This document shows, in pieces, positions 3,320 to 62,822 of a DNA stretch of 64,000 nucleotides; position 1 is the stretch's first letter; every line of letters begins with the position of its first letter. The position numbers and the translations under genes were made by a program. The notes below the pieces were generated by a model. That model was given only the letters and a program-made list of their open reading frames with translations, did no database searches and was not told the DNA's origin. This DNA comes from a virus. Location of the stretch: positions 1 through 64,000 of the IMG/VR virus record IMGVR_UViG_3300046361_000034, one strand, 5' to 3'.

Positions 3320-3335
3320 TGTTTGGTTTAGATTA

Positions 3336-4315: not shown

Positions 4316-4389
4316 TTGAATATGATTTAAGATTAATAATAAGTTAAATAATTTCTTCAACATTTCTTTTATAGGCAAATAGTCGCTCT

Positions 4390-4678: not shown

Positions 4679-4688
4679 AACCAAACAA

Positions 4689-5187
4689 CTAACAACAATC
4701 AATCACAAATTGTATGTTAAATGCTCTAGTATAATCAATACTAATAGCATTATAAGTTCTTTTAGCACCATTATATACAACGTGGTCTATAATGGTCAAG
4801 CTGGTAACTCCTTACACGCCAACAAGTATCTCAATGAGTATCTCTATGTTCAGCTTCTAATACCATATCAGCTGTTGTGTAGATAAGTTTATATGTACTC
4901 CCAATTTTAGTATGTAACTTAATGTTAAACTAAAGCACAACTTCACTATATCTTTCTTTTCTATATCATCATATAGTAGGTTTCAAGGTTTAACCTAGAT
5001 TTTGCTAATGATTTAGCGTATGAATTTGCATGAATGTTAACAATAGAGAAGATAGTATTCCATATTGTTTATATGCAGTTGTAAGATTATCAACTGTTCG
5101 GTTAATAAGTTCTTGTTTTTGTGGGTTAGTAGATGCTACTAATCTTCCTTTAGAAATTCTTCTACGTTGTTTGGTTGGGTTTGTCAT
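4689..5187 (-). pseudogene. decayed or frameshifted ORF (or locally erroneous assembly)
   Basis: The 5005-5187 ORF continues as protein-like fragments in shifting frames (NTIFSIVNIHANSYAKSLAKSRLNLETYY; KLHTKIGSTYKLIYTTADMVLEAEH; GVTSLTIIDHVVYNGAKRTYNAISIDYTRAF) broken by stops. Confidence 0.4.
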
Positions 5188-5206
5188 TATGATTAATATT
5201 AATTAG

Positions 5207-45436: not shown

Positions 45437-48400
45437 ATGGCATTAAATCCTAACTTTAGAAAAACTGTATCTAGTAAAGATATAGTTTTACCTCCAGATG
45501 CATCATCTGAAAATCCTCAACAAACTGTTGGGGATTTAGGCGTTCAAATTGGTTCACCTGTTTCAAGTACTTCTCATCCCTTAGAGGACTTAGGAAGTTT
45601 AGTACAAGGATATGTAGAAACTGGTAAAGAAAAATTACTTAATCTTAACTTAGATGAGTATGCTCCTTATTTTGGTAATAATATCGGAGCCTTTGGTAGC
45701 AAAGAAGACCTTGATAAAAGTAGAGCTTTTAGACAAGGAAGTGGGGAACAATTTCTTAATGCTGCTGGTAGAGTAGCTATTAACGTTGTTCCTGAAATGG
45801 TATCACAGCTAGCTAATGCTGCTGACTTTGAAGATTACTTTAATTCAGACCAAGAAGTTGGTAACTGGGTTAGTAATGCTATTAATAAATTTGAAGTAGG
45901 AGTAGATAAAGCTTTACCTATATACAGAGAAAATCCTGATAAACCTTTAGATATAGGTGATAATGCTTGGTGGTTTGAAAATGGTAGTAGTTTAGTTAAA
46001 TCTGCTGCTGCATTTGTTGGTGCAGGTTATCTTACTGGTGCTGCTGCAGGCTCACTATTTACTAAAGGCGGAGAAGCTCTTAAATGGCTTAGTACAATGG
46101 GTAAAGAAAGTCAGTTAGCAGATACAGGTAAACAAATTGCTAATGCTGGTGCAACTCTTGCTAATGCAATGATGTTAAATCAGGCTGAAGGTGTTGGTAT
46201 AGCAACCGATCAATTTCAAAAGAGTTATACTAGGGCATCTAATGACCTTAAAGCATCTGAAGAAGGTAAATCTTTAAGTGATGAAGAAATAGATAATCAA
46301 GCTAGAAAGATTGCTGCACAAGAAGCTACATCTGCACTTAACTTTAATAAGATTAATATTCTGTTAAATTTAACTTCTGCTAATATGTTTATGAAAACTT
46401 CTTTAGGTACTAGAAGTTTATTAAATGCTCCTAGTCTTAAACATGGGTTAATAGAACTCGGTAGAGAAGGTGCTCAAGAATATGGAGAAGAAGTTATTAA
46501 TGATATTTCTCAAAATCAAGCTACTGATAAAGATTATAGTTTTCAGAAAGCTATGGAGTACTCAATGACCGCACAAGGTATCGAAAGCGGGTTACTAGGC
46601 TTCATTGGAGGTGTCGGACAGACCGCCTTAACCAAAGCTGGAAAGTACCTACCTATATATAGCAATCGTGCCTACAATCAAGCGTATGCAAGTCATTATC
46701 AAAGTATGAAAAACACAGACTTGACTGATATTGAAAAAGATGCTAAAGCTAAAGAACTTGCATTAAGAGATGTAGGTACTAATAAATCTAGAGTTTCTGA
46801 TAAGTTTAATGAATCTAGTAGATATACTCAACAACAAAATGCTCTTAACAGGTGGCAGAATTTAGAAAATTCTGATAAAATTGGAGATATATCTAATGCT
46901 TTTTCTACTACTGATGAAATACTAGCTTTACATAAACAAATTGCTGATGCTCATGCTTCAGGAGATGTTGCTAAAGCTAAATCTTTAGAAGAAAGAACAT
47001 TTGGTTTACAAGCTAAACAAGCATTTCAAACTGGAACTACTGATGCATTTGAAAAAACATATAAATCTTTTGCTGCTTTAACACATGAAGAAGCTGAAAA
47101 GAAAGATATATATACAGAAGGAGATGAAAATACACCTAATTATTATAAAACTAGAGCTAATGAAGCAGTTAAAGATATTCAATCTCTAGAAACTATTTAT
47201 AATAATAGTCAAGCATATTTAAATAGTAATGATGTTTATGATATGGAAGAACATAAACATTATACTAATAAAGCTATTAAGTTAAATTTAGAAAATGTAA
47301 CTAAAGAATTTAATAATGCTTTAGAATTATATAAAAATAGACCTGAAACTTTACCTAGTAAAACTAATAGTTTTGTAGATTTAAATAGTCCATCTGGTTA
47401 TGATTTAAATAAAACTCAACCTAATTTTAAAAAGACTCCTAGCTATAGAAAGATTAAAGCTATGCTAGAAGCTGATAAAATTTATAGAGATAATATAGGA
47501 AATATACAAGAAGTTATAGATTTAACAACTTCTAGTAGTTACCAAGAAAAATTAAAAAATGCTATTAATAATAGTAGAAAAGCAGTAGTTAAAGAAAATA
47601 AGTTAAAACAAGTATTTAAGAAAAGATCTGAAAAGAAAAAAGAAATTAATACTTTAGTTAACACCTTAGCTAAACAAGCAAAAACAGAAGTAAATACTAA
47701 TAGTGTAGTAGAAGATGTTAATACTATTAATGATGTTATAGAACCTGGAAAAACTTTGCCTGTAGAGAATATTGAAGAAGAATCTGTTGTTACTCCTAAA
47801 CAAGATGAGGTTAAAAAGTCTTTTCCTAGTAAACCTGTATTTGTTAATGTTCCTTCATTTAATGATGCTACTATAAATAACAAATTTATAGAACTTAAAG
47901 GTATAGCTGAGAATCCTGATATATATTTAGAAGATAGTATTGATTATTTAGAAAAATCTATTGATGCTGTTAGAGTAGCAAAAGACTCTAACGCAATCCC
48001 TTCTCTAGAGGCAAACAATGTAGAGATTGGTTTAAATAGTCTTACAGAAGCTCTTAATGATTTAAAAGCACAAAAAGCACAAGAAGTTGTTAAGGCAGAT
48101 GTACTTAAAAGTATAGGGCGTCAATTATTAAATTCTATTAATGGAGAAGAAGATATTGATACAAATAATACCGATTCCCCTTCTAAGCAATTTGATAAAG
48201 CAAAACAACAAAGAGAAATTAATTTATTAATGGATTATCTTAATGTATTAGATAATACAGGAGTAGATATTACAGATTTCAAACAAGTTGTTAATTCATT
48301 TGAAAACAGTACTTCTAAAGCAGAAGTTATAAAAGCTTTTACTAAACTTAAAGGTCTTTTTATGGCTTATACTGGTCAAGAAGTTGAGGGTAGTTATGCT

Positions 48401-51400
48401 GAAATAATGTATGATTCTGTTGAGAAACAAAAATTATCTGATAGGTATAAAGGTATCAATAAGTATAATGTTATTGGTGATTTTTATACTGCTCCTAAAG
48501 ATGATATCTCTACAGATGCTTTAAATTCTATTGCTGATTTAGCTAAGTTAAATGGTTTAGATGTAAATGGTTCTGGTGTATCTACACAAATTTATAATGA
48601 TACTGCTGCTAATTTATTGGCATACTTATCTAAAAAATATAAAACTACATTTACTAGTAAAAAATCTGATAGTGGTCATAGATATATTGAGGTAACAAAA
48701 TCAGATTTAAATAATTTACTTAATGAGGCATTAAACCAAAGAGTATTAGATCCTGACTTTTTATCTGTTGGTAAAGAAATTACTTTTGTTCCTTTAGATT
48801 CAGTTACTTTAGAAAATGGTGATTTGTTATATGCTAAAGATGTGGATGTAAATGAAAAACCTATTGGTATTGCAGTAGATGGAGAATTAATTGATGGTTT
48901 ATATTTACACGATACTGGTTGGATAAATATAAATAATATAGATAATACTTCTGCAAATATTGTTAATGACCAAAATACTCTTAGAAATTTAAGAGCACAT
49001 ATATTAAATAGTAAAATACCTGTTACTACAGTTGTACAAGAAAGAAGTGCTGGTGTACCTATTTTAGATGAAAGTGGTGAATTAAGTACTGTATTAGAAA
49101 ATACACCTGATGTTGAAATAGGAATTATAAAAGAAGGTTCTGTATTTACTGGTAGAGAATCTATTGTACAAACAGTTAATATTTCTAGAATAGATGAAGG
49201 TAAAGGAGTTATTATTATTCCTTTTAATAATGAAAAATTAGCATTATCGGTAAAAAGAGCTAAATTAGATACTGGTGTAATTGATTCAATTATTACTGCT
49301 ACAGAATTGTATTTAAATGGTACTAAAACTGAGTTAACAGATGAATTAGATAAAACTTATCAAATTAATATATTAACTTCTAGAGGATTAGAACAGTATA
49401 TTAATCAATTTATTGGTTATTCGTCTTTAGATATTAAAGATAAACAATCTTTTTCTGATAAATTAATCAATATTGCTGATAATATTTCTTTAATACAATT
49501 TAATAATGGTAGGTTATATTATGGACAAGGACAAGAAATAGGAGTAAATGATATTTATCCTAGTAAAAATAATGGAGAAGAAAGACAAAAAGATTTAAAA
49601 CATTTTAGACAACATTTGAAAAAAATGTATCATCATATAAATTTAGATTTATTAGGTACAGATACTGGAATTAAACTTATGCAAAATAATAAAGTATTAA
49701 TACCTTATAATACTTATAATGAGTATGCTAAATCTGTTATGTTATCTCCTTATCTTTCTATGAAATTAGATAATGGTAAAACTATTTATACTTTACAAAG
49801 TAGAATTAAGTTTGATTTAGAAAAAGCATTTAGTAGTAATAATAAAGCTAAAAATGTTATTAAATCTTTATCAGAGCCTTTAGATAATACAAATGTAGAA
49901 AATACTGTTCAGCCTTTATCAGAACCTAAAAGTAATGATATAAGTTTACCTAATGGTAAAACTTTTAGTTTTAATGATGTAACAGAAGATACTTTAAGTC
50001 CTGCTAAAGAAAATAATAATTTACCAAATGTATTACTACCTATAGGAACATCAGGTAGTGGTAAATCTACATTTATAAAATCTTTACCACAAGAAAATTT
50101 AGTAATTATAGAACCTGATGCTATGAGAGTAGAATTTACAGGAGATATAAATAATAAAACTAAAGATAAAGAAATATATGAAGAAGCTACTAAAAGAGCT
50201 ATCATTGCTATTAAACAAGGCAAACAAGTAGTATTTGATACTACTAATTTAACTAAAGATAAAAGACTTCCTTTTATTGAAGCTATTAAAAAAGAAATAC
50301 CTAATGCTAATATTCAATATAAGTTAATGGAATTAAATCCAGAACTTGCTAAACAAAGAATAAAAGCGCAAATTGAAAAAGGAGAAAATAGAGCTAATGT
50401 TTCAGATGAAACAATAAATAGACATGCGCAAGCTTATCAACAAATGTTAGAAGATATTAAAGAAGAACCTTTAACAGAATTTAATGATAGTCCTAATTTA
50501 ATTGGAAATGAAAATTATGATGATTTAATTAATTCATCTTCTTTAATTCCAGGATTATCTGTTACTACTCAAACATCATTAGTTAGAAGTATTGTAAATG
50601 ATATTTATAACGAAGCTTCTGATAGTGCTGAACCTGTTAAACTTAATAAACAACTTAAATTAGCAGTTGAAAGTCTAGAAATGATTAGAGATAAAGCTGT
50701 TGAAATTAATCATTCTAAAGCTGGTGAAATTAATAAAGTTGTAGAAGCTGTTAAAGCTAATGTTAAAAAATTAACTAAGGCTGTTAATCTTGAGTACAAG
50801 AAAAGAAACAGTGTTGTAGGAGTTATTAATTTAGATAACTATAATGAATTATCTATAGATGAAGAACAAAGTATTAAAGATGGTGGTAACGATAAATTAC
50901 AACTAACTGAATATACTATTGACCCTAAAACTACTTTAACAGGTAGAGCTAAACAAATGTTAGAAGGTATTACTGATAAGAAAGTAACTATTACTGAAGA
51001 TGGTAAAGAATTTACTACTAAAACTACTTTATTAAATTTAAATATATTTATTCCTTTTGATATTGTTTATAATAACTTAATTAGTATATTAGGTAAATCT
51101 AATACTAATGCTAATATGGTTCAAGTAGATTCTAAATTGATTGAAAAACATGGTAAACATCCTGATTATGTAGTTCATGCTTTAGAAGAACTTTCTAAAC
51201 ATATTGAAACTAAACCATATTTAATTGATGTTATGGAGAAACTTAAAACTGCAGAACCTGATGTTCAAAACTCATTTATATCTGCATTGAATAAAGTTTC
51301 TACTAATCATATATATGTTCATGCATTATATGATAAACCTAATAACAAATATAGTTTAAGAATTAACAAAGCTGCTAGTAAAAATATTACAAATCTTGTA

Positions 51401-54400
51401 CTATCTGAATGGCAAAATAATCTTAATTATAGTAAATTACTTAGTTTAGACAATGATAGAATTATTTATAATTTTAGAGCCATAGATGCATTTAATAAAC
51501 AATTTAAAGAAATTGCTGATAAAAATGTCAATCCTAATTATAAAGAACTTAGTGATTTATTAAAATTAGTAGGAATAGAAATTCCTATTCAACTTTATAA
51601 TACTTGGAATAAATATGGAATTAAAGTAAAAGGAACTAATCAAACATTATTAGATTCTTTTAAATTTTCTACTGGTATATTTAAGAATATAGGTAAAAGA
51701 CTTAATTCTTATAATACTAATAATGCAGAATGGTTAAATCTATCTGAAAATAATTTATATGACGATAGTTCTTTTACAAGTTTAGCAAATTTAGTATCAT
51801 ATTATAGAGTAGACTTATTTAATGACTCTTTTAAAAATGCTAATGGTGATACTATTTTTGGTTATACAAATGATAGATATGCTATTACTAGAGCATTAAA
51901 ATTAAAAACAGATGTTAAATTATTATCTGATTTAAAGTCTGATGTATTTGCTCAAGATTCAGTTTGGTTAAACCAATTACTTAAAAAAGGAGATACTATA
52001 GCTATTAATGAAGAAAGTACTTTCTATAAATACTTTCAATATGGTACAGCTGAAAGCCTTAAAACTAAAAATGCTCTATTAGGTAAAACTATTGATACTC
52101 TTAAACCTGCTGAGTTAGCTAAATTTCATTTTAGTTTGTTTCAAAATGGTGGACTTAAAATAGGTAAAGATTCAGATCCTACTCCTATTATGCAAGTTAT
52201 TTATCCTACTATGGAAGAAAAAGCTAATGCTTTTATATTTCAAGTTCCTGGAGAATATTATAAACTTACTGCAGAAGGTAAAATGCATCCATCAGATAAA
52301 CAAAAACTTGTTGAAATTTTGATATATCCTGAAATTCAAAGAATATTAAAACATCAAGCTGATCCTAATGCTGTACAAATTGATGGGTATAAAGAAGGTG
52401 CTGGAAAATTTTTATTATTTCCTAAACTAAATGATGATGCTAGATTATTTGATAAAACAGGTCAATTATTAGATGAAGTTCTTTTACCTGAATTTAATGG
52501 TATAGATTTTCAAAATATACTACAAGAGCATTTATATAATCATTTAATGCAAATATTTAAAGATACTAGAGAAAATTGGAAAAAATTTGGTATTATTACT
52601 ACTGATAAAAATAGTAAACAAGATCAGTTTCAATATATAGATGCTAGTTATAAAGCTGCTTTTGCTGTACAAGGTATTAATACTACTCTTTTAAATTATG
52701 TAATTAATACTACTGTTGCTAATATGAATATACAACAGCTATTTATAGGAGATCCTGCTTTATATTATAAAGGAAGTTCTGATGCTATGACTACTGGTCA
52801 ACTTACAGCAGATAATCAAGGTAAACGCTTATCAGCTGATAATGCAGGTGCTATTCAATTATTATTCCCACAAGGAAGTACATTTAATACTTTAGTTATT
52901 AAAGATAATTATGTATCTAGTAAAAGAGCTGATTATATTGAAAAATTATATAAAGGTTTTCCTGATATTTATGGACAATATAAAAAAGGAACATTAATGT
53001 CAAATGGTAAACAATCTAAAGGTATAAACTCTACTGATGCTCAAGGTTATCATACTTTAGAAGAACATCTTGATATTATGCATTCATTAGGTACACTTAG
53101 TTTAAAAGATAAAACTAAAATTTTAGATACTTATAATAAAACTGGCAAAATTAATAAAAGTGATAAAGCATTAGTTTTACAACCTTTTAAACCTAGATAT
53201 GTAAATAACTTTAACAGATTTGGTGTTAATGCTAGGCTTTATTTTAAGTACTCTACTCTACCATTAATTAAACAATTTACTCAAGGTACTGATTTAGATG
53301 TATTAAGAGAACATATGGAGAAAAACAAAATACAACTTGTATTACATGAATCTGCTGTAAAAGTTGGAGGATCTGCTAATATTATTGATGTTTATGACTC
53401 TAAAGGTAATATTGTTATACCTGTTAAATGGAAAAGTAGTTTAATTACTAATATTCCTAGAGAAGGATTAGGTATACAACAAGATGTACCATACAATTCT
53501 AAACAAAAAACTGTTAATGATGGTACTCAACAAGCTAAAGAGTTGTTTACAAATATTATGGATATTGATGGATTTATTGATCCTGAAACTGGTAAAGCCG
53601 TAACTGGTAGAGAGTTATCTAAAACCTATTTAGTTAAATACAAAAAATCATTTTTATCTAAATATAATAAATTAATTCAAGAATTAGATTTTGATACTAA
53701 AACACATACTATAGGAAATTATGATAAATTATATAAACTTTTAGAAGATGAGGGTTATAATAGAAATTATAGTTCAAATGATATTCAAGGCTTAGAAACA
53801 GTTAAGATAGGTAATAAATCTGTTAAATTTACTGTACCATTATGGTTAAATACTGCTGATAGTAAAATCGTAGCATTACTAAATTCTATTGTAGATAATA
53901 AAGTTAGAAAAAGAAGTTTTAGAGGTAAGTCTTTTGTACTAGCTTCTGAAAGCGGTACTCAACTTAAAACTATTAAAGATGTTAATTTATCTGAAGTAGT
54001 AAAAGTAGGAGATTGGGATGGTACATTAAAAGGTGCTTGGGAAGATAATGAAAATAAAGGACAAATGTCTTATGCTGAAGTACTTGTTCCTTTTAAATTT
54101 TGGGATAATAAAGGAGAACTTCTTAAGTTAGATGAATTTATGAATGATGGAGTAATAGATTTAACTAGATTACCTGAAGAATTATTAGAAATATTTGGTT
54201 ATCGTATTCCTACATCTGGTTTAAATCTTATATCTAATATTAAAATAGTAGGATTTTTACCTGCTAGTTATGGCGATATAGTCATTGCTCCTGCTGATTT
54301 TATTGTACAAATGGGTTCTGACTTTGATGTTGATAAATTATATACTCATATGTATAATACTCATTATAATGATGTTACTAAATCTTTACATATTGTTAAT

Positions 54401-57400
54401 AAAGATATTAGTAGTCAACATAATAACATTACTCAAAGTATTAAAGTAATGGAAGATAGAGTTAAAGAACTTTCTAGGAATGGAGTAGCATCTGCTAAGG
54501 ATAATAATTTAATAGTTGCTTTACAACAACAAATAAATTTATTAAAAGAAAGTGATTTAATGCAATTAAAAGATATTGATGAACAAGTTATACAAAATGA
54601 TTTATTAGATATTCATAAAGCTGTTTTAAATAACCCTAATGTAGAAGTTCAAAAAGCTAGAACTAATCCATTAAGTTTTGGAGAATTACCTGCATTAGCT
54701 AAAGAAATTTATAAAGAATCTAATAGATTTTTTACACCTTTAGCTAATACTTATCAACAAAATAAATATTTAAGTGCTAGAGCAAGTAAAACTGCTGTAG
54801 GTGTATTTTCACTTGATACTGTTTTTAATAGTGTACTACAATATATAGAAAAACCTATGTATTTTACTAAAGTTGTTAAAGAGGGTGAAAATATGGTAAC
54901 AAAAGATATTAGATATACTATTGGTGGTTATACAACTAATGCTTTAAATAATCCTAAAAGATTAGATGGTAAATGGAAATCTGATAGTTTTATTGCTTTT
55001 ATGGCTACTGCTCTTGATAATGGTAAAGAACAATTATTAGGTAAATTAAATATTAATAGTGATACATTTGATTTTATTAGAGCAGCAAATCAATTAGGAC
55101 TACCTGAGAATTTAGTTATCTTAATGATTAATCAACCTGCTATTAAAGCATATCAATTATCTAAACAATTTTTTGAGGATGTTGAAATTAAGCCTTTTAA
55201 TGAAGATATTGAAAATATATTATCTACAACATCTATAGAAAATTTATTAAAAACTGTTAAAGGTGATGATATAACTTCTGATAGACAACAAGCCTATTTA
55301 AGCTTCTTCAAAGAACTATCTTCTAAAGGCAGACAATTAAAAATACTACAATCTGCTATCAATTCTGATAGTAGTGGTATAGGTAAAAATATATTTTATA
55401 GTATTAAAAAAGCTGAACAAATATTAAATTTACCTAAATCTACAGAAATTTCTAATGTAGATAATTTAATTGGTAATTATATATATCTAAATGAAAGTCC
55501 TGCTTATAATAAATTATCTGTTGAAGAGCAAGAGGGGTATATTAATACTAAAAAAGAAGATGGTTATATTTTATATAATAATGTATTAATTCAACCTACA
55601 TCTTTAGGAGGTATGGCTGGAGTTTATGCTACAATGTTAAATAATCAATTATGGAGTAAATTATATCCTTACACTGATAAGAATTATTATAGTATAATTA
55701 CTAGTATTATCCCTGCTGATTCTGATAATAGTACTATTCAAGGTAGTGCAGATGCTTTACAAAATTCTGTAACTAATTATAAGTCTTTTTTAATTTCTAA
55801 TACATTTAATTTGTTTACATCTAAATATACAAGTATAACTGAAGCAAGAAAAGATTTGTTATTTGATAGAGAAAATCATTTAAGTCTAGGTAGTTTTATT
55901 AGTCAAATTAAAAATACTAAAGCTTATTCTAATGCAATGTTAGATAGATTACAAATTGGTAGAAGTAATCAAATTGTTGATATTACTGGAAGTATTCCTA
56001 CTGTTATTACATATCAAAATGCAGGAAGTGTTGAAATGGATGAAGAAGTTATTATTAATAGTTTTATTGATATGATTGTAAATCCTCAAGACTTAGGACA
56101 ATTTAATGGTGAAAGTATTAATACTAAACAATTAGCAGATTTGTTAATTACTCATCAAATGATTAATGGTGGTATTCAAAAATCAAATCAATTTATTAAA
56201 TATATACCATTTAAGTACTTACAAAAAAGAGGATTTTATAAAGCTGTAGAATCTACTAATGTTGTTACAAATGTAGATACTGTTAATCAAATTCGTAATA
56301 CGTATTATACTCAATATTTACAACATAATCCAGAAGAATTTTATAATGAATTTTATGATATAGAGTCCCCTAAATTTGTAAATGACTATAAAAATATTGT
56401 TAATGGTAAATTAGTAGGAGTAGATCCTCAATTATCTGAAAAAACTAATTTTGTTATTACTAATAAAGCTAATTCTGAAATTTATAGAATTTTTAAACAT
56501 GATGATATGTCAGGAGATTTTATAGAGATAGATAACTTAGGATGGAAGGGTAACAATGAGTATGACATTAATGCAACTTTTGCTGCTAGAAGTTCTATTT
56601 ATATAAATCAAGTAGATAACTATTCTAATTTTGATAAATTAAATGGTATAGATACTAGTAATTTTGAAGAAATCAATGATGATGTTATTGAAAATGCTGA
56701 AGAGCATCTTCCTAATCCTACAGAAACGTCAAATTTTTTACGTTTGGATAGAGATACAAAGTCAGATAATTCTCCTGCTATTTATAATGAAAATAAGTAT
56801 GATTTGGTTAAAAAGTATTATTTAGATGATAATAATTTATCTATTGAAGATAAGTATAGATTGATATTAAAAGAAGTTGAGGCTAATAGTACTAATCCTA
56901 TTGTACAATATTTTAGTAAAAAATTGGTTGATATTATTCCCTATCTTGCAGAAACACCATTGTATGTAAATACTAAACTTCCTGTTCAAGGTAGAGCTAC
57001 TACAACTAAGTTATTAGGAGAACCTGTCAGAATTGAAATTAATCCTAATCTTATTAGTAGTGATGAAGAAATGGCAGAAGTTTTGATGGAGGAAATGATA
57101 CATGGTTTACTTAAAACTGAAATAAGTAAAGGTAGTTCTGAATTTGTAAAAAGTCTTAATAGTATTAAGAATGAAGTAAGAAGTATATTAATAGAAAAGT
57201 ATGGTAAAGAAGCTTTTGATACTGTAGATAAAAAGATTGTTGGAAAATTGCCTTTAAAAGAAGGTGTGGAGCGAAACCTTATCTATAATGTATATAATCT
57301 TGATGAATTTGTTGCTGCTGCTATTAAAGATAAAACATTTCAAGCTTTTCTTAATAGTACTGAAAGTTTAGATTCTACTAAATCTATATTTTCTAGATTT

Positions 57401-60400
57401 GTTGATTACATTAAAAATCTTTTAGTTAAGTTAGGTGTAGTACCTGATAAAAACTTAAGTGCTGTTTTACATGAAATTATCAATGTTGTAGAATCTCCTA
57501 ATTTTCAAGTAGGTAGAGAATTGGTTACTCCTAAATATGTTAGAACTGTTGGTTATCTTAATAATAAGTTTAACTTAACAAACAACACTAACGAATTACG
57601 TTCTAAAGGTAATGCTGAAGAAATAGCAGATTTTATTAATAGAAATATAGTTAATGTAGAGGCTGTTGTTAAAGATAATTTTGTAATACTTACTTCTAAA
57701 AAATTATATGAAGTAAATGAGGATAACTCTTTTGGTACAGAAGATATACAAGATGAGGGATTTGGTTCTAATCTTGTTAATTACTATCAATCTTTAACTC
57801 TTAGAGTAGCCAAATTAAAAGCTAATATTAAAAAAGCTGTTGAATTAAAAGATTTTGTTAGGGTAGCTGATTTAACAGAAAGATATAATGTAGAAAAAGA
57901 TAAATTAGTTGGTGTTAAAAAAATTACAGCTGCTGTAGATTTAGCTGATAAGGGTGAAGAAGATTTACAAATGATAGAAACTATTTTAAATCGTAAGATG
58001 ACTTCTGAAGATATTGTATATGCTAGAGGAGTACTTAACTTTTGGAAAGATGCTAAACGTTTAGTATTTAATGAAAGATTAAATAGTTCTAAGCCTTTAA
58101 CTAGAATTTATGGTGCTATTGAGGGTAGTGCAGAAGCTCTATCAGATAAGTTATTTAAAATTGAGAAAACTTATATGGAAGAGTACATTAAAAAATATAC
58201 TGACCAAGATATTAATCTCGATCAACAGTTTAAAGATTATAAAGATATTAATATTATTCAAGCAAATGTTAGAGATATCTCATCTTATGATAATATTTTA
58301 TTATCTTCTATTTGGTCATCTGTAAAACATGCTAATATAGCTGCTACTAATGAAGGTAATGAGAAGTTAGAAAGTATAAACAATCAATTAACTAAAGTAG
58401 TTCCTGTATTAAAGTCTTTAGGAAATGCTGAATTATTTGAGGTGTTTAGACAGAAAAATTCTAATGGTAAGTTAACTGGTCATATTATTAATCCTTATAC
58501 TGATATATTTTATAAAGATAGAGCAAAAGTTCTTAAAAAATTAAATAAAGACAATACTCAAACTAATTTTATTAAATATCTTAATTGGATTAATCAATCT
58601 GCTTTTGATGTAGATTTAGAGTCTATTTTTCCTACTACTGGTGAAACAGATGCTACAACAATAGTTAGAGAAGAATTAAAACAAAAGTTAGGAGCAGGTG
58701 TTTATAGTTTTTGGTTTAAAAATCAAAAGAATAAAATAGATTCTTATAATGACCATAAGTTTGGACAAACTCAATCATTATTAGCTAAGTATAAATTAGC
58801 ATCTGAACAAGATATTCTTAATAGTGATGAGGCTAATAGAGAATATAAATTTTGGATAGAAAAAAATAGCCCATACAGATTAGCTAAATATGCTTTCCAA
58901 GATAATATTAAATTATCTTCTGAATTTGGTTATACCTCACAAAAATATTATGAAGTTATTCCTAAGGATTCTGAGTACTTAGATAGTAATTATGATACTA
59001 TTTCTAATAATCCTGAATTGTTAGAGTTTTATAATACTATAACAGATTTGTTTAAAGATTTAAAGAAATATGTACCTGAAAGTCAACAAAAAACTTTAGC
59101 TTATGGTGGTGTTCCTTCTCTTGAGAAATCTATTGTAGAATTATATACTGAACATGGTATGCAATTAGGAGTATTACCTATTCAAGATATATGGACTAAA
59201 TCAATGCAAAGTAGTTTTGGTGATAATACCTCAACTATTATTGACCCTGTTACTAATAGACCTATAAATGAAATGCGTATTCCTATTATTAAAGATAACT
59301 ATAAAGAAGTTCAAAAATATATTAAACAAAAATCTGCTGAGTATTTAATAGAAAATAATAAAGCACCTAGTGCTGACATTATTAAAGGATTTGAAGAAGA
59401 TATTATTAATGAAATATCAGAAGGTAAATCATTTGATTTAGGTAAAATTGCTAAAGTTTATACTGCATTAGTATTAGCCCATAAACATAAATCTAAAATA
59501 GAAGATAGTGTTAAAATTGCAAATACTGTTTTAAACAAATATGAGGAAACTAGATTAAGACCTGATGGTACTCCAGAAACAGATGCCATGACTGGTGCTA
59601 TTCAAAGAAAAGGAGCTGATCAATCATTTGGTAATATTAAATCTGCTTATGAGTCTTACATAAATAATGTATTTTATGGGGATATTCATGAAGAAGAAGG
59701 TAAAGGTAAAAAATCTTTAACTAAATCTGAAAAATTAGAAAAAGCTAAATTATTAGGTTTACTTAATCAATTAGAAGTTCAACATGATAATAAACTTATA
59801 GAGGATGAATTATATAAAAGTACTAAAGATAACTTAACTGAACAACTTGGTAATCTTGGTAAAACATTTATATATTCTAAAGCTGGAGATAATGTTCTTA
59901 AATATGTACAATTAAAGTTAATGGGTTGGAATGTATTAGGCGGTATTAGTAATATGGGTTTTGGTTGGCTCTCGAATCAAATAGAAGCCGCAGGTGGACA
60001 GTTTTTTAATAAAGCTGATTTAGCCTATGCCTACAAATTATCGTTGCACTCAATCACTAAAAATGCGTCATTTAATAAACTAGAAACTGATACTGCTAGA
60101 AAGATACGAGAAGGTATGGATAAATGGGACATATTAAAAGATGCATCACATGAGCTTTATACCTCTAGCACTCCTAGTAGTTTTGATAGTAAATTAAAGT
60201 TTCTTAAACCCTTTAATGTAAATCAACGTACAGAATATTTGAATCAAGCACCATTATTTATTGCATTATCTCGTAATACTATGGTAGATACAACTAAAGG
60301 AAAAATTTCTTTATGGGATGGTTTTGATAAAGATTGGAATTGGAATGAAGCTGAATATGGTGCAGAACCTACAGAAGTTATTAATAAAATGAGAATTAAA

Positions 60401-61141
60401 TTAGATGTACTTATTAAAAGAACTCATGGTAATTATGATAACTTATCCCCTTTAAAAGTTAAACGTACTTTTACTGGTAGAGCTGCTAGTCAATTTAGAA
60501 CTTGGTTATATGAGTCTATTGCTACTCGTATAGAAGATGAAAGATTTGATGCTAATTTAGGAGAAACTGTCAAAGGTAGATATAGAAGTGTAGGAAGTTT
60601 AGCTAATATAACAGATAAAAATAATGCTGGAAATATTGCTTTTACTTTACTTAAAGGTTTCTTACAACAATTTAGTTTTGGAACTTTACCTATAAATGGT
60701 AACTTTGAAGAACTAATTGATGGGGAGAAATTTAAAGAAATTGATGCGGTAAATATGAGAAAAGTTTGTATGGAAATTGCATTAGCATTAGATTTGTATT
60801 TATTCTTACTATTAGTATCTGCATTTGCTGGAGATGATGATGAAGCTTATACTAATATATTATTAAATCAAGGTGCTAGACTTAAAACAGATTTATTATT
60901 GTATGTAAATCCTATTGAAGCTAGAAATATTGTTAAAGATATTATTCCTGCTATGAGTATTGTTAAAGATACAGGAGATTGGATGAATAGTGTTGGAAGG
61001 TTTGCTATAGGAGAAGATGAAATAGAAAGTGGAGTTCATGATGGAGATAGTAGAGTACTTAGTAATACTATTAAAATGTTACCATTTGGTAGTAAAGCAT
61101 ATAGTATTTATAATTCAGGTTCACAACAATATTCTAAATAA
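45437..61141 (+). CDS. giant virion RNA polymerase polyprotein (5234 aa) with inserted P-loop kinase and zincin-like domains
   Basis: YRIPTSG and GSDFDVDKLY (DFDVD 54320-54334) as in crAss-like vRNAPs; GTSGSGKS 50045-50068; EEMIH 57089-57103; hydrophobic segments near both ends. Confidence 0.9.
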   Translation: MALNPNFRKTVSSKDIVLPPDASSENPQQTVGDLGVQIGSPVSSTSHPLEDLGSLVQGYVETGKEKLLNLNLDEYAPYFGNNIGAFGSKEDLDKSRAFRQGSGEQFLNAAGRVAINVVPEMVSQLANAADFEDYFNSDQEVGNWVSNAINKFEVGVDKALPIYRENPDKPLDIGDNAWWFENGSSLVKSAAAFVGAGYLTGAAAGSLFTKGGEALKWLSTMGKESQLADTGKQIANAGATLANAMMLNQAEGVGIATDQFQKSYTRASNDLKASEEGKSLSDEEIDNQARKIAAQEATSALNFNKINILLNLTSANMFMKTSLGTRSLLNAPSLKHGLIELGREGAQEYGEEVINDISQNQATDKDYSFQKAMEYSMTAQGIESGLLGFIGGVGQTALTKAGKYLPIYSNRAYNQAYASHYQSMKNTDLTDIEKDAKAKELALRDVGTNKSRVSDKFNESSRYTQQQNALNRWQNLENSDKIGDISNAFSTTDEILALHKQIADAHASGDVAKAKSLEERTFGLQAKQAFQTGTTDAFEKTYKSFAALTHEEAEKKDIYTEGDENTPNYYKTRANEAVKDIQSLETIYNNSQAYLNSNDVYDMEEHKHYTNKAIKLNLENVTKEFNNALELYKNRPETLPSKTNSFVDLNSPSGYDLNKTQPNFKKTPSYRKIKAMLEADKIYRDNIGNIQEVIDLTTSSSYQEKLKNAINNSRKAVVKENKLKQVFKKRSEKKKEINTLVNTLAKQAKTEVNTNSVVEDVNTINDVIEPGKTLPVENIEEESVVTPKQDEVKKSFPSKPVFVNVPSFNDATINNKFIELKGIAENPDIYLEDSIDYLEKSIDAVRVAKDSNAIPSLEANNVEIGLNSLTEALNDLKAQKAQEVVKADVLKSIGRQLLNSINGEEDIDTNNTDSPSKQFDKAKQQREINLLMDYLNVLDNTGVDITDFKQVVNSFENSTSKAEVIKAFTKLKGLFMAYTGQEVEGSYAEIMYDSVEKQKLSDRYKGINKYNVIGDFYTAPKDDISTDALNSIADLAKLNGLDVNGSGVSTQIYNDTAANLLAYLSKKYKTTFTSKKSDSGHRYIEVTKSDLNNLLNEALNQRVLDPDFLSVGKEITFVPLDSVTLENGDLLYAKDVDVNEKPIGIAVDGELIDGLYLHDTGWININNIDNTSANIVNDQNTLRNLRAHILNSKIPVTTVVQERSAGVPILDESGELSTVLENTPDVEIGIIKEGSVFTGRESIVQTVNISRIDEGKGVIIIPFNNEKLALSVKRAKLDTGVIDSIITATELYLNGTKTELTDELDKTYQINILTSRGLEQYINQFIGYSSLDIKDKQSFSDKLINIADNISLIQFNNGRLYYGQGQEIGVNDIYPSKNNGEERQKDLKHFRQHLKKMYHHINLDLLGTDTGIKLMQNNKVLIPYNTYNEYAKSVMLSPYLSMKLDNGKTIYTLQSRIKFDLEKAFSSNNKAKNVIKSLSEPLDNTNVENTVQPLSEPKSNDISLPNGKTFSFNDVTEDTLSPAKENNNLPNVLLPIGTSGSGKSTFIKSLPQENLVIIEPDAMRVEFTGDINNKTKDKEIYEEATKRAIIAIKQGKQVVFDTTNLTKDKRLPFIEAIKKEIPNANIQYKLMELNPELAKQRIKAQIEKGENRANVSDETINRHAQAYQQMLEDIKEEPLTEFNDSPNLIGNENYDDLINSSSLIPGLSVTTQTSLVRSIVNDIYNEASDSAEPVKLNKQLKLAVESLEMIRDKAVEINHSKAGEINKVVEAVKANVKKLTKAVNLEYKKRNSVVGVINLDNYNELSIDEEQSIKDGGNDKLQLTEYTIDPKTTLTGRAKQMLEGITDKKVTITEDGKEFTTKTTLLNLNIFIPFDIVYNNLISILGKSNTNANMVQVDSKLIEKHGKHPDYVVHALEELSKHIETKPYLIDVMEKLKTAEPDVQNSFISALNKVSTNHIYVHALYDKPNNKYSLRINKAASKNITNLVLSEWQNNLNYSKLLSLDNDRIIYNFRAIDAFNKQFKEIADKNVNPNYKELSDLLKLVGIEIPIQLYNTWNKYGIKVKGTNQTLLDSFKFSTGIFKNIGKRLNSYNTNNAEWLNLSENNLYDDSSFTSLANLVSYYRVDLFNDSFKNANGDTIFGYTNDRYAITRALKLKTDVKLLSDLKSDVFAQDSVWLNQLLKKGDTIAINEESTFYKYFQYGTAESLKTKNALLGKTIDTLKPAELAKFHFSLFQNGGLKIGKDSDPTPIMQVIYPTMEEKANAFIFQVPGEYYKLTAEGKMHPSDKQKLVEILIYPEIQRILKHQADPNAVQIDGYKEGAGKFLLFPKLNDDARLFDKTGQLLDEVLLPEFNGIDFQNILQEHLYNHLMQIFKDTRENWKKFGIITTDKNSKQDQFQYIDASYKAAFAVQGINTTLLNYVINTTVANMNIQQLFIGDPALYYKGSSDAMTTGQLTADNQGKRLSADNAGAIQLLFPQGSTFNTLVIKDNYVSSKRADYIEKLYKGFPDIYGQYKKGTLMSNGKQSKGINSTDAQGYHTLEEHLDIMHSLGTLSLKDKTKILDTYNKTGKINKSDKALVLQPFKPRYVNNFNRFGVNARLYFKYSTLPLIKQFTQGTDLDVLREHMEKNKIQLVLHESAVKVGGSANIIDVYDSKGNIVIPVKWKSSLITNIPREGLGIQQDVPYNSKQKTVNDGTQQAKELFTNIMDIDGFIDPETGKAVTGRELSKTYLVKYKKSFLSKYNKLIQELDFDTKTHTIGNYDKLYKLLEDEGYNRNYSSNDIQGLETVKIGNKSVKFTVPLWLNTADSKIVALLNSIVDNKVRKRSFRGKSFVLASESGTQLKTIKDVNLSEVVKVGDWDGTLKGAWEDNENKGQMSYAEVLVPFKFWDNKGELLKLDEFMNDGVIDLTRLPEELLEIFGYRIPTSGLNLISNIKIVGFLPASYGDIVIAPADFIVQMGSDFDVDKLYTHMYNTHYNDVTKSLHIVNKDISSQHNNITQSIKVMEDRVKELSRNGVASAKDNNLIVALQQQINLLKESDLMQLKDIDEQVIQNDLLDIHKAVLNNPNVEVQKARTNPLSFGELPALAKEIYKESNRFFTPLANTYQQNKYLSARASKTAVGVFSLDTVFNSVLQYIEKPMYFTKVVKEGENMVTKDIRYTIGGYTTNALNNPKRLDGKWKSDSFIAFMATALDNGKEQLLGKLNINSDTFDFIRAANQLGLPENLVILMINQPAIKAYQLSKQFFEDVEIKPFNEDIENILSTTSIENLLKTVKGDDITSDRQQAYLSFFKELSSKGRQLKILQSAINSDSSGIGKNIFYSIKKAEQILNLPKSTEISNVDNLIGNYIYLNESPAYNKLSVEEQEGYINTKKEDGYILYNNVLIQPTSLGGMAGVYATMLNNQLWSKLYPYTDKNYYSIITSIIPADSDNSTIQGSADALQNSVTNYKSFLISNTFNLFTSKYTSITEARKDLLFDRENHLSLGSFISQIKNTKAYSNAMLDRLQIGRSNQIVDITGSIPTVITYQNAGSVEMDEEVIINSFIDMIVNPQDLGQFNGESINTKQLADLLITHQMINGGIQKSNQFIKYIPFKYLQKRGFYKAVESTNVVTNVDTVNQIRNTYYTQYLQHNPEEFYNEFYDIESPKFVNDYKNIVNGKLVGVDPQLSEKTNFVITNKANSEIYRIFKHDDMSGDFIEIDNLGWKGNNEYDINATFAARSSIYINQVDNYSNFDKLNGIDTSNFEEINDDVIENAEEHLPNPTETSNFLRLDRDTKSDNSPAIYNENKYDLVKKYYLDDNNLSIEDKYRLILKEVEANSTNPIVQYFSKKLVDIIPYLAETPLYVNTKLPVQGRATTTKLLGEPVRIEINPNLISSDEEMAEVLMEEMIHGLLKTEISKGSSEFVKSLNSIKNEVRSILIEKYGKEAFDTVDKKIVGKLPLKEGVERNLIYNVYNLDEFVAAAIKDKTFQAFLNSTESLDSTKSIFSRFVDYIKNLLVKLGVVPDKNLSAVLHEIINVVESPNFQVGRELVTPKYVRTVGYLNNKFNLTNNTNELRSKGNAEEIADFINRNIVNVEAVVKDNFVILTSKKLYEVNEDNSFGTEDIQDEGFGSNLVNYYQSLTLRVAKLKANIKKAVELKDFVRVADLTERYNVEKDKLVGVKKITAAVDLADKGEEDLQMIETILNRKMTSEDIVYARGVLNFWKDAKRLVFNERLNSSKPLTRIYGAIEGSAEALSDKLFKIEKTYMEEYIKKYTDQDINLDQQFKDYKDINIIQANVRDISSYDNILLSSIWSSVKHANIAATNEGNEKLESINNQLTKVVPVLKSLGNAELFEVFRQKNSNGKLTGHIINPYTDIFYKDRAKVLKKLNKDNTQTNFIKYLNWINQSAFDVDLESIFPTTGETDATTIVREELKQKLGAGVYSFWFKNQKNKIDSYNDHKFGQTQSLLAKYKLASEQDILNSDEANREYKFWIEKNSPYRLAKYAFQDNIKLSSEFGYTSQKYYEVIPKDSEYLDSNYDTISNNPELLEFYNTITDLFKDLKKYVPESQQKTLAYGGVPSLEKSIVELYTEHGMQLGVLPIQDIWTKSMQSSFGDNTSTIIDPVTNRPINEMRIPIIKDNYKEVQKYIKQKSAEYLIENNKAPSADIIKGFEEDIINEISEGKSFDLGKIAKVYTALVLAHKHKSKIEDSVKIANTVLNKYEETRLRPDGTPETDAMTGAIQRKGADQSFGNIKSAYESYINNVFYGDIHEEEGKGKKSLTKSEKLEKAKLLGLLNQLEVQHDNKLIEDELYKSTKDNLTEQLGNLGKTFIYSKAGDNVLKYVQLKLMGWNVLGGISNMGFGWLSNQIEAAGGQFFNKADLAYAYKLSLHSITKNASFNKLETDTARKIREGMDKWDILKDASHELYTSSTPSSFDSKLKFLKPFNVNQRTEYLNQAPLFIALSRNTMVDTTKGKISLWDGFDKDWNWNEAEYGAEPTEVINKMRIKLDVLIKRTHGNYDNLSPLKVKRTFTGRAASQFRTWLYESIATRIEDERFDANLGETVKGRYRSVGSLANITDKNNAGNIAFTLLKGFLQQFSFGTLPINGNFEELIDGEKFKEIDAVNMRKVCMEIALALDLYLFLLLVSAFAGDDDEAYTNILLNQGARLKTDLLLYVNPIEARNIVKDIIPAMSIVKDTGDWMNSVGRFAIGEDEIESGVHDGDSRVLSNTIKMLPFGSKAYSIYNSGSQQYSK

Positions 61142-61710: not shown

Positions 61711-62265
61711 TTAAGATTTTTTAATATTATTAATATTGGTTATTAGAGTAGATAAATTAGGTAATTTATTAGAAGTTGCACTAGCGTTTTGTAAACTTCC
61801 TAATATATCTGATAGCATAATAAAATCATCACCTTTAGTATCTATTAAAAATTTAATTTTATCATTTATTACTTCTTGTTTTGAATAATTATATACATTA
61901 TAATTTCCATTTGTGGCAGTAAGTCTTAAAGCAGGACAAGTTATACTTTCAGTATCAACAACTCTTAATCTATTAAACCACTCTTTATCTAATAGGTGTA
62001 ATAAGTAAATAGCATAAAAGAATTTCCTATGTAAATCATTATAACTTGTTTCTTGATTTTGAATCATAGTTACTAATTTCTTTTCACTAGTTTCATAGCA
62101 TAAATTAATAAGATCTCTTTCTTTTTGAAAAGCATCTTTATCTTTAGATAAATCTTCTTCAAGTTCTTTAATTTTAATAGTTTTAATACTTCCAATAATA
62201 AATTGAATTACTACACATATTGCAAGTATTACAGCAATAGCAACGATAATGGCATGATTAATCAT
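61711..62265 (-). CDS. N-terminally membrane-anchored coiled-coil protein
   Basis: 184 aa, N-terminal TM then coiled coil. Confidence 0.7.
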   Translation of the reverse strand: MINHAIIVAIAVILAICVVIQFIIGSIKTIKIKELEEDLSKDKDAFQKERDLINLCYETSEKKLVTMIQNQETSYNDLHRKFFYAIYLLHLLDKEWFNRLRVVDTESITCPALRLTATNGNYNVYNYSKQEVINDKIKFLIDTKGDDFIMLSDILGSLQNASATSNKLPNLSTLITNINNIKKS

Positions 62266-62267
62266 AA

Positions 62268-62822
62268 TTAATTAGTTTTAAGTTTATAAATATAGTTATT
62301 AAAATTAGTATGTGTATCAATAGTAGGAACAAATCTCCAATAATCCTCTACTCGTATAAAGTAATTGTTATGATTATAAGTTGTACCATTAGATAAATTA
62401 GTTTTAACTTCTAATTGAAGTTTATCAGTAGTTATAATAGGTAAAGAATAATAATAATCTTTAACTTCCTCTAACTGTTCAGTAATACCAGTTTTATAAG
62501 TATTAGTAAATTGAATCATAAGTAAAAAGATTAATAAAGCTAATTGTTCTTTATTACTCTCTCCATATAAAAATAGTTTAAATAATTCTTTAACCTCATG
62601 TATATTAACTTGAGTTTGCTTTTCTTTAGGAATTACATCTAATACTCGTTTCTGAATATCTTGTATAATAAAATCAGGATAAAGAGGTAAACTTTGTAAA
62701 AGAATATTTACAATATCTGCTACTTCAAGTACGTGAAATCTATCATATATTGTATCGCCTTCTTGTGTTCGTGCTCTTTCTAATGCAGAAAATATTATAG
62801 CTTGTAATTTTTCATATTCCAT
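62268..62822 (-). CDS. hypothetical protein
   Basis: 184-aa ORF; ATG overlaps the upstream stop. Confidence 0.7.
   Translation of the reverse strand: MEYEKLQAIIFSALERARTQEGDTIYDRFHVLEVADIVNILLQSLPLYPDFIIQDIQKRVLDVIPKEKQTQVNIHEVKELFKLFLYGESNKEQLALLIFLLMIQFTNTYKTGITEQLEEVKDYYYSLPIITTDKLQLEVKTNLSNGTTYNHNNYFIRVEDYWRFVPTIDTHTNFNNYIYKLKTN

Follow-up and report, generated by a model that had tools for sequence, protein, structure and literature searches.

What is an apparently intact polynucleotide kinase doing inside a giant viral RNA polymerase protein, and how did it come to be there? The question is raised by the IMG/VR virus record IMGVR_UViG_3300046361_000034, which is 83,005 bp long and about 96% complete, and whose first 64 kb form the stretch analysed here, referred to as the window. 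An open reading frame (ORF) on the forward strand of the window runs for 5234 codons without interruption and encodes P0001, a polyprotein that fuses the parts of a crAss-like virion RNA polymerase (RNAP); within it, upstream of the polymerase core as the initial annotation had proposed, lies a kinase domain 1429 residues before the catalytic motif DFDVD. Few known phages are as abundant as the crAss-like ones. The polymerase proteins that they inject are of enormous size, evolve fast and for the most part have no annotation. The kinase is one enzymatically legible piece of them, which is better conserved between phages than the terminase, recurs in no fewer than 77 other giant proteins and is missing from the model phages in culture.

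Family and fold of the embedded kinase

By all of the sequence and fold criteria tested, the domain is, as predicted from its sequence and its model, a complete Pnk-type kinase. Its conserved core, which we refer to as the cassette, begins with LLPIGTSGSGKST at residue 1533 and is recognised by the Pfam AAA_33 profile with E=9.8e-18 and 65.3 bits (cut-off 27), over model positions 2–141 of 143; a six-frame search of the whole genome gave no second AAA_33 match. The domain is also matched by PHROG 505, 'polynucleotide kinase' (E=1.2e-12), and its top NCBIfam match is the kinase part of bacterial Pnkp (TIGR04075, E=1.7e-9), the full-length architecture of which scores 36.5 bits against a cut-off of 750 and is covered at model positions 12–148 of 851 only. 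The nearest clusters in the ESM Atlas consist of proteins of 146–173 aa, mostly viral AAA_33 proteins. When the single kinase sequence was searched against the PDB, it matched the C. thermocellum Pnkp kinase domain (CthPnk, E=1e-5) and Capnocytophaga Pnkp1 (8e-5).

These matches become much stronger with a family alignment, A1, of 31 rows that comprises the P0001 kinase, eight cassettes from other phage loci and 22 small stand-alone relatives. Invariant in A1 are the three P-loop glycines and the P-loop lysine, the Asp and Arg of the D-x-x-R motif, the Asp and Thr of the D-x-T-N motif and one lid arginine (the last five being columns D42, R45, D82, T84 and R122), while a second lid arginine (R133), both P-loop serines and the asparagine (N85) are conserved in at least 90% of the rows. 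The A1 profile finds CthPnk in the PDB with E=5.5e-21 over profile positions 5–154 of 157, followed by Pnkp1 (2.8e-17), PSTK (3.9e-11), T4 Pnk (3.7e-10) and mammalian PNKP (1.3e-6). An AlphaFold2 model of the kinase, with a mean predicted local distance difference test score (pLDDT) of 79.5 and a predicted template modelling score (pTM) of 0.71, leads to the same relatives: the first six PDB ranks in Foldseek are all CthPnk chains, with template modelling scores (TM) of 0.69–0.71 and a root mean square deviation of 2.6–2.8 over 150–153 columns, and after them come Pnkp1 (rank 7), mammalian PNKP, PSTK and T4 Pnk (TMt 0.74). The initial annotation had read an intact P-loop kinase of the Pnk type from motifs that include EPDAMR, which contains D1561 and R1564, and VVFDTTN, which contains D1601, T1603 and N1604; both calls are borne out.

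The comparison extends to single residues. In the accessible part of PMC3902929, the residues described as individually essential in CthPnk are Lys21, Ser22, Asp38 (the general base) and Arg41, with Thr80 contacting the first phosphodiester, Arg116 stacking on the base of the nucleoside triphosphate (NTP), and Arg120 and Arg123 acting on the gamma phosphate in a mutually redundant manner. Identical counterparts of Lys21, Ser22, Asp38, Arg41, Thr80, Arg116 and Arg123 are found in the P0001 kinase as K1543, S1544, D1561, R1564, T1603, R1641 and R1652, respectively, and Arg120 is the sole residue of this list without an arginine counterpart. CthPnk (PDB 4gp6, 4jst, 4mde) thus shares fold and size with the P0001 domain, the model of which has a TM of 0.71 to 4gp6, and carries the motifs at identical positions. 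It is, however, the N-terminal domain of a kinase–phosphatase–ligase that works with Hen1, whereas the P0001 kinase stands alone in a virion polyprotein with no phosphatase or ligase detected. T4 Pnk (PDB 1ly1, 1ltq) belongs to the same kinase family and is likewise phage-encoded, and the accessible text of PMC3902929 gives it the same Asp general base and the same Arg and Thr acceptor contacts. The P0001 kinase differs from T4 Pnk in being part of a virion protein that lacks a phosphatase, in a genome where no ligase was detected. The small stand-alone AAA_33 kinases of phages, of about 150–170 aa, are 32–54% identical to the cassette over the whole domain and have the same invariant residues, but they are free genes.

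The inserted segment and the spread of the cassette

The protein that holds the kinase shows both features by which its class of RNAP is recognised, namely a DxDxD motif and homology to the RNAP of Cellulophaga phage phi14:2. A tblastn search with residues 2401–3400 matched 143 phage records, of which 35 cover 80% of the query or more. Flavobacterium phage FpV4 and its relatives head the list (26% identity, 6e-69), the phi14:2 structural protein was matched with 6e-24 and 93% query coverage, and Bacteroides phages and crAssphage records were also among the matches. PHROG 16227, 'virion structural protein', covers residues 2530–3075 (E=3e-50), and there is weak blastn similarity at the DFDVD site to genes annotated as crAssphage RNAP, while a phmmer search of the RNAP core against the PDB matched nothing. 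The phi14:2 gene concerned is gp077 in GenBank numbering, which lies between gp078 and gp076, all three being annotated as structural from tandem mass spectrometry. In blastp, residues 509–1746 of gp077 align with P0001 residues 2108–3342, which puts the start of gp077 near residue 1600, and residues 878–1404 of gp076 align with residues 4745–5221. As gp077 and gp076 match successive regions of P0001, three phi14:2 genes appear to be fused in it, although the N-terminal module gave no blastp match to gp078 and its first 1500 residues or so matched no Pfam or PHROG family. Fused crAss-like RNAP polyproteins are mentioned in the accessible part of the phi14:2 preprint. The characterised crAss-like virion RNAPs (phi14:2 gp66, which is GenBank gp077, and PhicrAss001 gp47, gp49 and gp50) have a homologous core with the DxDxD motif and are flanked by two further large virion proteins, all of which are fused into one ORF in P0001, and, unlike P0001, these examples carry no AAA_33 domain. 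Direct scans of phi14:2 and FpV4 found no AAA_33 match over the cut-off, phi14:2 having only a 12.5-bit P-loop match elsewhere and FpV4 none. The nearest cultured relatives, which are the sole guide in this matter, suggest a host among the Bacteroidota.

The kinase can be located against a set of close orthologues, obtained by searching with residues 1000–1500 among proteins of 2878–9160 aa. This yielded 12 proteins that are 42–54% identical to P0001 in that region, 11 of them with lengths of 5040–5337 aa and one (P0214) of 3850 aa. None of the 12 has a precomputed Pfam match, and a Walker A motif (G-x-x-G-x-G-K-[ST]) occurs in none of them. Pairwise blastp shows them to be collinear with P0001 over nearly their full length at 37–52% identity, with the N-terminal module aligned end to end; in ten of the 12 the alignment ends at P0001 residues 1518–1556 and restarts at 1679–1696 without interruption of the orthologue's own numbering. 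In P0210, for example, P0001 residues 43–1522 correspond to 76–1564 and residues 1685–5234 to 1563–5073. The remaining two, P0218 and P0219, align up to residues 1468–1474 and hold other, unrelated extra sequence just upstream of the kinase linker. In the orthologues the motifs LPNGK(S/T)FSF(D/N)DVTxxDFSP and SSLIKG(I/L)S are separated by about 10–25 variable residues, and P0001 has these plus the kinase. Because all 12 of the closest orthologues lack the kinase at exactly that spot, the domain is identified as a modular insertion. The initial annotation had anticipated this and had called for its presence or absence in orthologous virion RNAPs to be checked; the linkers that it named as the boundaries, EDTLSP (residues 1517–1522) and FNDSP (residues 1682–1686), do coincide with the points at which the orthologue alignments stop (residue 1522) and restart (around residue 1685).

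A quick maximum likelihood tree of the C-terminal module, with 15 rows, SH-aLRT support and midpoint rooting, nests P0001 within the 12 kinase-less orthologues, the fork that places it having 84% support, and P0003 and P0052, two more distant orthologues that have a kinase in the same linker, form the outgroup. A single gain of the kinase in the lineage of P0001 is the simplest reading of this tree. At the DNA level, the blastn similarity of positions 49400–51100 to 16 other phage loci is confined to 50020–50488, at 75–89% identity. Orthologues P0216 and P0218 are nearly identical to each other except that P0218 has an unrelated 212-aa insert just upstream of the kinase linker (corresponding to about nt 49900–50000) where P0216 has none. 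On the alignments, sequence was recently gained or lost here, at the hot spot that also holds the kinase, and on the strength of this the kinase linker can be regarded as a site of ongoing domain gain or loss. Such pairs with and without an insert amount to a natural experiment on domain gain in giant phage proteins. That the insertion lies at a junction of the gp078|gp077 type is extrapolated from where gp077 aligns, with a precision of roughly 100 residues.

Several other signs of insertion were considered. The initial annotation had pointed to a duplication around LSEP, and the two copies of CTTTATCAGARCCT are indeed real, none being expected in 100 shuffles, but they precede the junction by some 40 residues, with the conserved LPNG..FSF motif in between, and so do not serve as a mark of the insertion. 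Motifs ending in SP flank the kinase in three proteins (TEDTLSP and TEFNDSP in P0001, DDLSP and NLLSP in P0052, DEDLSP and VDLSP in P0003), which is only suggestive as a trace of target duplication. For a target-site duplication the DNA gives weak evidence, the flanking repeat matching at just 17 of 23 nt (74%) and being one of 11 comparable repeat families in 1.1 kb. A compositional anomaly was rejected, with a GC content of 0.262 in the cassette and 0.240 and 0.249 in its flanks.

Beyond the close orthologues, residues 1490–1720 matched 77 other giant proteins at 38–91% identity, in the kinase region only. The span from (I/L)LPIG.SGSGKS to ..ML.DI measures 141–143 aa in 57 of the 77, is interrupted by 134–924 extra residues in eight and has ends that the regular expression left unresolved in 12. 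In blastp with the whole of P0001, the kinase has a median identity of 77% to these proteins, compared with 25% for the alignment across the DFDVD region, which is detectable in 48 of them. Among the 47 in which both could be placed, the kinase lies 1381–2600 residues before D(F/Y)DxD in 24 proteins and 724–2052 residues after it in 19, and it falls within -432 to +85 in the other four, one of which, P0077, has it 28 residues after. In P0001 the offset is -1429. The two main zones fit the linkers on either side of the RNAP module, as far as can be told from sequence positions. A phmmer search of 1.84 billion representatives returned 2002 proteins at E<=1e-3, 325 at E<=1e-10 and 103 at E<=1e-30, ranging from fragments to 5234 aa. 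The cassette is present in 16 IMG/VR loci, and the sole contig that holds it among 185,579 species-representative prokaryote genomes is one of 30.8 kb (L073:8001–8450, 85% identical) in a metagenome-assembled genome labelled Spirochaetaceae; this is probably a phage contig binned with that genome. The 40 GenBank phage matches listed for the kinase, all with 38% identity or less, comprise 36 from Bacillus phages, two from Agrobacterium, one from Rhodothermus and one from Sinorhizobium phages, and there is no crAss-like phage among these 40.

The cassette is strongly conserved. Across 11 intact cassettes the identity to that of P0001 is 0.80–0.90 in nucleotides and 0.80–0.89 in amino acids, and the ratio of non-synonymous to synonymous substitution rates (dN/dS) over the 11 pairs is 0.12–0.20 by the NG86 method. 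In five genomes with cassettes 85–89% identical to that of P0001, the terminase large subunit (TerL) is 56, 29, 28–39, 24 and 24% identical. A DNA identity of 80–90% with sharp edges at 11 loci could be taken for recent transfer, but this argument is weakened by a codon-sharing control. The codon bias is extreme (GC at third codon positions is 0.089 for the ORF and 0.056 for the cassette), and at identical amino acids the same codon is used in a fraction of 0.68–0.82 in the cassette and 0.33–0.70 in the flanks, against 0.66–0.67 expected from codon bias; the excess in the cassette has p<0.01 in four of nine pairs and p of 0.04–0.07 in three, and is absent in two. With codon sharing this close to the bias-only expectation, synonymous sites are near a composition-limited plateau and the NG86 dS is unreliable, the true dN/dS being, if anything, lower than the figure given. 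As the control undercuts the DNA identity, the case for horizontal movement rests on the contrast with TerL and on the variable position. A cassette that stands 30–60 points above TerL in identity and varies in location is best explained, on the sequences compared, by movement of the module between phages together with strong purifying selection.

Some cassettes are themselves interrupted. The eight split cassettes among the 77 are those of P0044–P0046, P0049–P0051, P0054 and P0056, and L014:10358–10786, L015:10358–10768 and L016:10349–10759 are loci of this kind. The inserts fall in one of two loops, of which one follows the helix that ends in AIKQGK and the other belongs to the lid, flanked by KAQIE and NRANV. 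Inteins were rejected as their explanation, because the 134–924-aa inserts have no Cys/Ser starts or HN ends, and they are taken as nested domains; of three inserts scanned, one gave a weak NADAR match (E=0.0084, below the cut-off) and two gave nothing. Nesting of domain within domain looks like a general route by which these giant proteins grow. At one of the 16 IMG/VR loci (L017:10001–10423) the cassette is broken by a deletion of about 35 nt, with nine stops in the original frame, and is either a decaying copy or an assembly error.

A second hypervariable linker lies at about 56575–56735 (residues 3713–3766 or so), where the alignments to P0003, P0052, P0211, P0215 and P0218 break and these proteins hold some 70–240 extra residues. 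Its rough counterpart in phi14:2 is the boundary between gp077 and gp076. In eight of the 47 placed relatives the kinase lies 800–999 residues past DxDxD, close to the offset of the second linker, which was mapped in P0001 alone, at about +750 to +800. One of the orthologues, the 3850-aa P0214, is labelled 'uncharacterized protein [Procambarus clarkii]' and most likely stems from phage DNA that ended up in the genome assembly of a crayfish; the label hints at an aquatic setting.

Possible roles of a kinase without a ligase

We consider it an even chance that the domain is a virion-delivered 5'-OH polynucleotide kinase, inserted in a crAss-like RNAP polyprotein and acting on RNA, possibly DNA, ends at entry. 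In such a scheme K1543 and S1544 would bind NTP and Mg, D1561 would serve as the general base on the 5'-OH, R1564 and T1603 would hold the first phosphodiester and R1641 and R1652 would form the lid, so that phosphate is moved from NTP to the 5'-OH ends of RNA or possibly DNA. The polyprotein would be packed as capsid cargo and ejected ahead of the DNA, and would thereby bring a small number of kinase molecules into the cytoplasm while all phage genes are still silent. A compact alpha/beta domain of 160 residues between flexible linkers would suit a route of unfolding and refolding. Packaging and ejection of the segment are argued by analogy with the virion proteomics of phi14:2 and of PhicrAss001, in the latter of which three RNAP-associated proteins were detected in virions, with estimated room for about six copies of each, and for which partial unfolding in ejection and refolding in the cytoplasm were proposed, according to the accessible part of PMC10172136. 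We infer a polynucleotide substrate from the kinase family, and a role in counter-defence is presumed. More specifically, the 5'-OH ends would be those left by metal-independent host RNases, and the phosphorylated ends would become ligatable by a host 5'-phosphate-dependent ligase, or have their fate otherwise changed; that the ends have this origin and that sealing is left to the host seems possible, but falls somewhat short of an even chance.

An enzyme delivered with the polymerase would act at a stage for which, to our knowledge, few counter-defence activities are known, T4 Alt being the classic example. The initial annotation had drawn a parallel with T4, in which Pnk heals damage made by anticodon nucleases. 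T4 makes its Pnk early, as a fusion with a 3'-phosphatase, and the partner of the enzyme is the phage's own RNA ligase 1. That other half is missing here: neither a 3'-phosphatase nor an RNA ligase was detected in the same protein or genome, and a T4-like heal-and-seal pathway is not supported, since the genome yielded no RNA ligase, RtcB, metallophosphatase or CCA-adding enzyme and no tRNA gene. The suggestion that an RNA ligase be sought elsewhere in the genome was followed, and there was no match to PF09414 or RtcB, while a search for Rnl1 (PF09511) was uninformative, its control having matched nowhere. Since a phage ligase was not detected, simple T4-style repair is unlikely, and its absence points instead to host-assisted repair or to a ligase-independent use of 5'-phosphorylation.

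A number of observations weigh against the reading of the domain as a virion-delivered kinase of RNA ends. Scans of the genome, about 96% complete, for RNA ligase PF09414, RtcB, Metallophos, PolyA_pol and tRNA genes all came back empty, and Pfam reports no 3'-end-healing domain, nor any further domain, in the polyprotein. PF09414 is found in only one of 20 other phage records with a crAss-type cassette, and in none of the six that are at least 90% complete, against nine of 15 records with distant relatives of 25–40% identity, eight of these being over the cut-off (Fisher p=0.0006; the distant set includes larger genomes and both sets include fragments). The surroundings of the stand-alone relatives were judged through family scans of their records only; where the nearest annotated phage relatives are concerned, which are polynucleotide kinases of Bacillus phages, 15 of the 40 listed rows have a feature for an RNA or tRNA ligase at or next to the match. 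On these counts the wider kinase family is tied to RNA ligation and often shares its genome with an RNA ligase, which speaks in favour of an RNA link, as does the PolyA_pol domain in two of the 77 kinase-bearing giant proteins; the embedded crAss-type cassette, as judged from its genomic records, is uncoupled from sealing enzymes. The substrate of the kinase, moreover, is not readable from its sequence: CthPnk acts on DNA oligonucleotides in its crystals (accessible part of PMC3902929), PSTK, a kinase of tRNA-bound amino acids, is the third-best relative, and the Zeta_toxin profile (PF06414) is also over its Pfam cut-off. Finally, the presence of residues 1523–1684 in the virion, and their survival of any processing, is presumed from the proteomics of relatives.

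The absence of sealing enzymes suggests that an injected kinase might work without any ligase, either by blocking the re-joining of ends by host RtcB or by marking cleaved host RNA for decay that depends on a 5'-monophosphate, in which case it would lock in damage to host RNA or speed the recycling of nucleotides and would not be a repair enzyme. RtcB requires a 5'-OH, and kinase-mediated RNA decay is established; RtcB was also detected in the Bacteroides thetaiotaomicron control genome, and the ligase counts given above (none in the one genome of its own) agree with such a use. On the other hand, the Pfam and PHROG scans recognised no RNase domain in the polyprotein, and we judge this pair of ideas, taken jointly, to be unlikely. 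The kinase might instead act on DNA, phosphorylating 5'-OH ends or nicks of the incoming phage genome for sealing or circularisation by host DNA ligase, an idea that would need no RNA ligase and sits well with an enzyme that arrives with the DNA, with mammalian PNKP among the matches and with CthPnk, the closest solved relative, which binds and phosphorylates DNA oligonucleotides (accessible part of PMC3902929). Against it, no 3'-phosphatase partner was found by the Pfam scan of the polyprotein or the Metallophos search of the genome, the broader family is associated with RNA ligases, and most of the close orthologues and all of the cultured relatives tested do without the kinase, so that genome entry is not generally dependent on it; a DNA substrate is accordingly quite unlikely in our estimate.

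An activity on small molecules, like that of zeta toxins, was also weighed, with UDP-N-acetylglucosamine, nucleotides or a defence signal as the substrate and weakening of the wall or quenching of the signal at entry as the outcome. The Zeta_toxin profile scores 30.2 bits (E=3.8e-7, cut-off 22.3) and PADLOC gives a weak match to NsnB (E=7.8e-5), zeta-toxin-like kinases fused to MuF occur in phages (Iyer et al. 2017, accessible part of PMC5512222), and NADAR, NUDIX and ART domains are partners in other giant proteins. AAA_33 is nevertheless 35 bits above Zeta_toxin, there is no zeta or PezT chain among the 29 PDB matches of the A1 profile at E<=0.01, PezT comes at rank 38 in the fold search (TM 0.58/0.43), the DxxR and DxTN acceptor residues match those of Pnk one for one, and the domain falls some 50 residues short of the zeta profile in length, all of which makes this reading improbable. 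More improbable still is that the cassette is a passenger, a promiscuous domain tolerated in linkers with little benefit, or clipped off before packaging. Its absence from all 12 of the closest orthologues and from phi14:2 and FpV4, its variable position and the broken L017 copy would suit such a domain, but its dN/dS, its invariant catalytic residues and its identity of 85–89% where TerL has 24–56% would not, and just one of the 16 loci is broken.

The virion-delivered polynucleotide kinase can also be put in a bolder form that takes the movement of the cassette into account. The domain would then be a plug-in that passes horizontally between distantly related crAss-like phages, is carried mainly in the linkers that flank the polymerase module and accepts additional domains within its own loops. 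It would be kept nearly unchanged because it acts alone, with no phage ligase, at the very start of infection and on a host target that is itself conserved. Its effect would be either to neutralise, with sealing by the host, the 5'-OH ends that HEPN-type RNases produce (Cas13b, type III CRISPR, anticodon nucleases) or to block re-ligation by RtcB. We regard this composite as rather doubtful; if it were true, the kinase would be the first RNA-end-chemistry enzyme shown to be delivered pre-made by a virion.

The arrangement recalls the polyvalent proteins (Iyer et al. 2017, PMC5512222), which in the accessible text are giant, are co-delivered with DNA and consist of strings of conflict-related enzyme domains, much as P0001 joins a kinase and an RNAP in one ORF. 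Its relatives continue the pattern, for the 77 kinase-bearing giant proteins include, in precomputed Pfam matches (two proteins being checked directly), SF1 helicase modules in five, ART-PolyVal in seven, DUF7831 in six and NADAR in three, and, more rarely, AlkB-like domains in two, PolyA_pol of the CCA-adding type in two (one with HD), cpYpsA in two and NUDIX in one. The kinases in the main text of PMC5512222 are of the Ser/Thr and zeta-toxin-like types, and that text, to which the online architecture lists are additional, has no occurrence of 'polynucleotide kinase', 'PNK' or 'crAss'. No description of a Pnk-type kinase in a crAss-like virion protein was found in the literature, including the accessible parts of PMC7886860, the phi14:2 preprint, PMC5512222 and PMC10172136, although Fig. 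3 of PMC7886860 or supplements may show one. There is nothing new in Pnk enzymes, polyvalent proteins or crAss-like virion RNAPs taken singly, and it is the predicted presence of the first inside the last that appears to be the new combination.

Features of the polyprotein and its surroundings

The coordinates of the modules and motifs are compiled below. Upstream of the polyprotein ORF lie the genes for TerL, the portal and the major head protein.

Table of features of P0001 in the window (positions in nt of the window; all on the forward strand)
Feature	Position	Strand	Residues	Basis
ORF of polyprotein P0001 (fused crAss-like virion RNAP cargo protein)	45437..61141	+	5234 aa	Open frame, PHROG 16227, tblastn
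N-terminal module, ending in the conserved LPNGKTFSFNDVTxxxLSP motif	45437..50002	+	1–1522	Orthologue alignments
Two copies of the LSEP ... LSEP repeat in the variable upstream linker	49866–49879, 49914–49927	+		Shuffled sequences
Inserted segment, kinase cassette with short linkers	50003..50488	+	1523–1684	Gap in 12 closest orthologues
Conserved cassette core, 142 aa, LLPIGTSGSGKS ... QMLEDI	50033..50458	+	1533–1674	AAA_33, profile, model
P-loop GTSGSGKST	50045..50071	+	G1537–T1545 (K1543, S1544)	Alignment to CthPnk GSSGSGKST
D-A-M-R (predicted general base; predicted base orientation and first-phosphodiester anchor)	50117..50128	+	D1561; R1564	Alignment to CthPnk Asp38/Arg41
D-T-T-N (Thr a predicted first-phosphodiester anchor)	50237..50248	+	D1601, T1603, N1604	Alignment to CthPnk DATN (D78, T80)
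Lid, AKQR..ENRANV	50357..50392	+	R1641 through R1652	Alignment
RNAP module (end approximate)	50489..56700	+	1685 to ~3750	blastp to phi14:2 gp077; orthologue alignment breaks at residues 3712–3767
RNAP catalytic motif DFDVD	54320..54334	+	2962–2966	Regular expression match at residue 2962
C-terminal module	56730..61138	+	~3765–5234	blastp to phi14:2 gp076 (residues 4745–5221) and FpV4 1596-aa protein

Three minor features of this region may be mentioned. In P0052 an HExxH motif of the zincin-like type is found at HEAIH, and the same site reads EEAIH in P0003 and EEMIH in P0001 (57083–57115, residues 3883–3893). There is no HExxH motif in the whole 5234-aa protein, and autoprocessing of P0001 by a zincin was set aside on that ground; if such an enzyme processes these polyproteins, it looks inactive in P0001, to go by the motif. 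Just downstream of the polyprotein, on the reverse strand, are two adjacent ORFs of exactly 184 aa each (61711–62265 and 62268–62822), which show no significant similarity to each other in blastp (best E=0.89). A hydropathy scan of the polyprotein picks out one strongly hydrophobic segment of 24 residues, KVCMEIALALDLYLFLLLVSAFAG, at residues 5109–5132 (60761–60832), which is possibly a membrane-inserting helix near the C-terminus.

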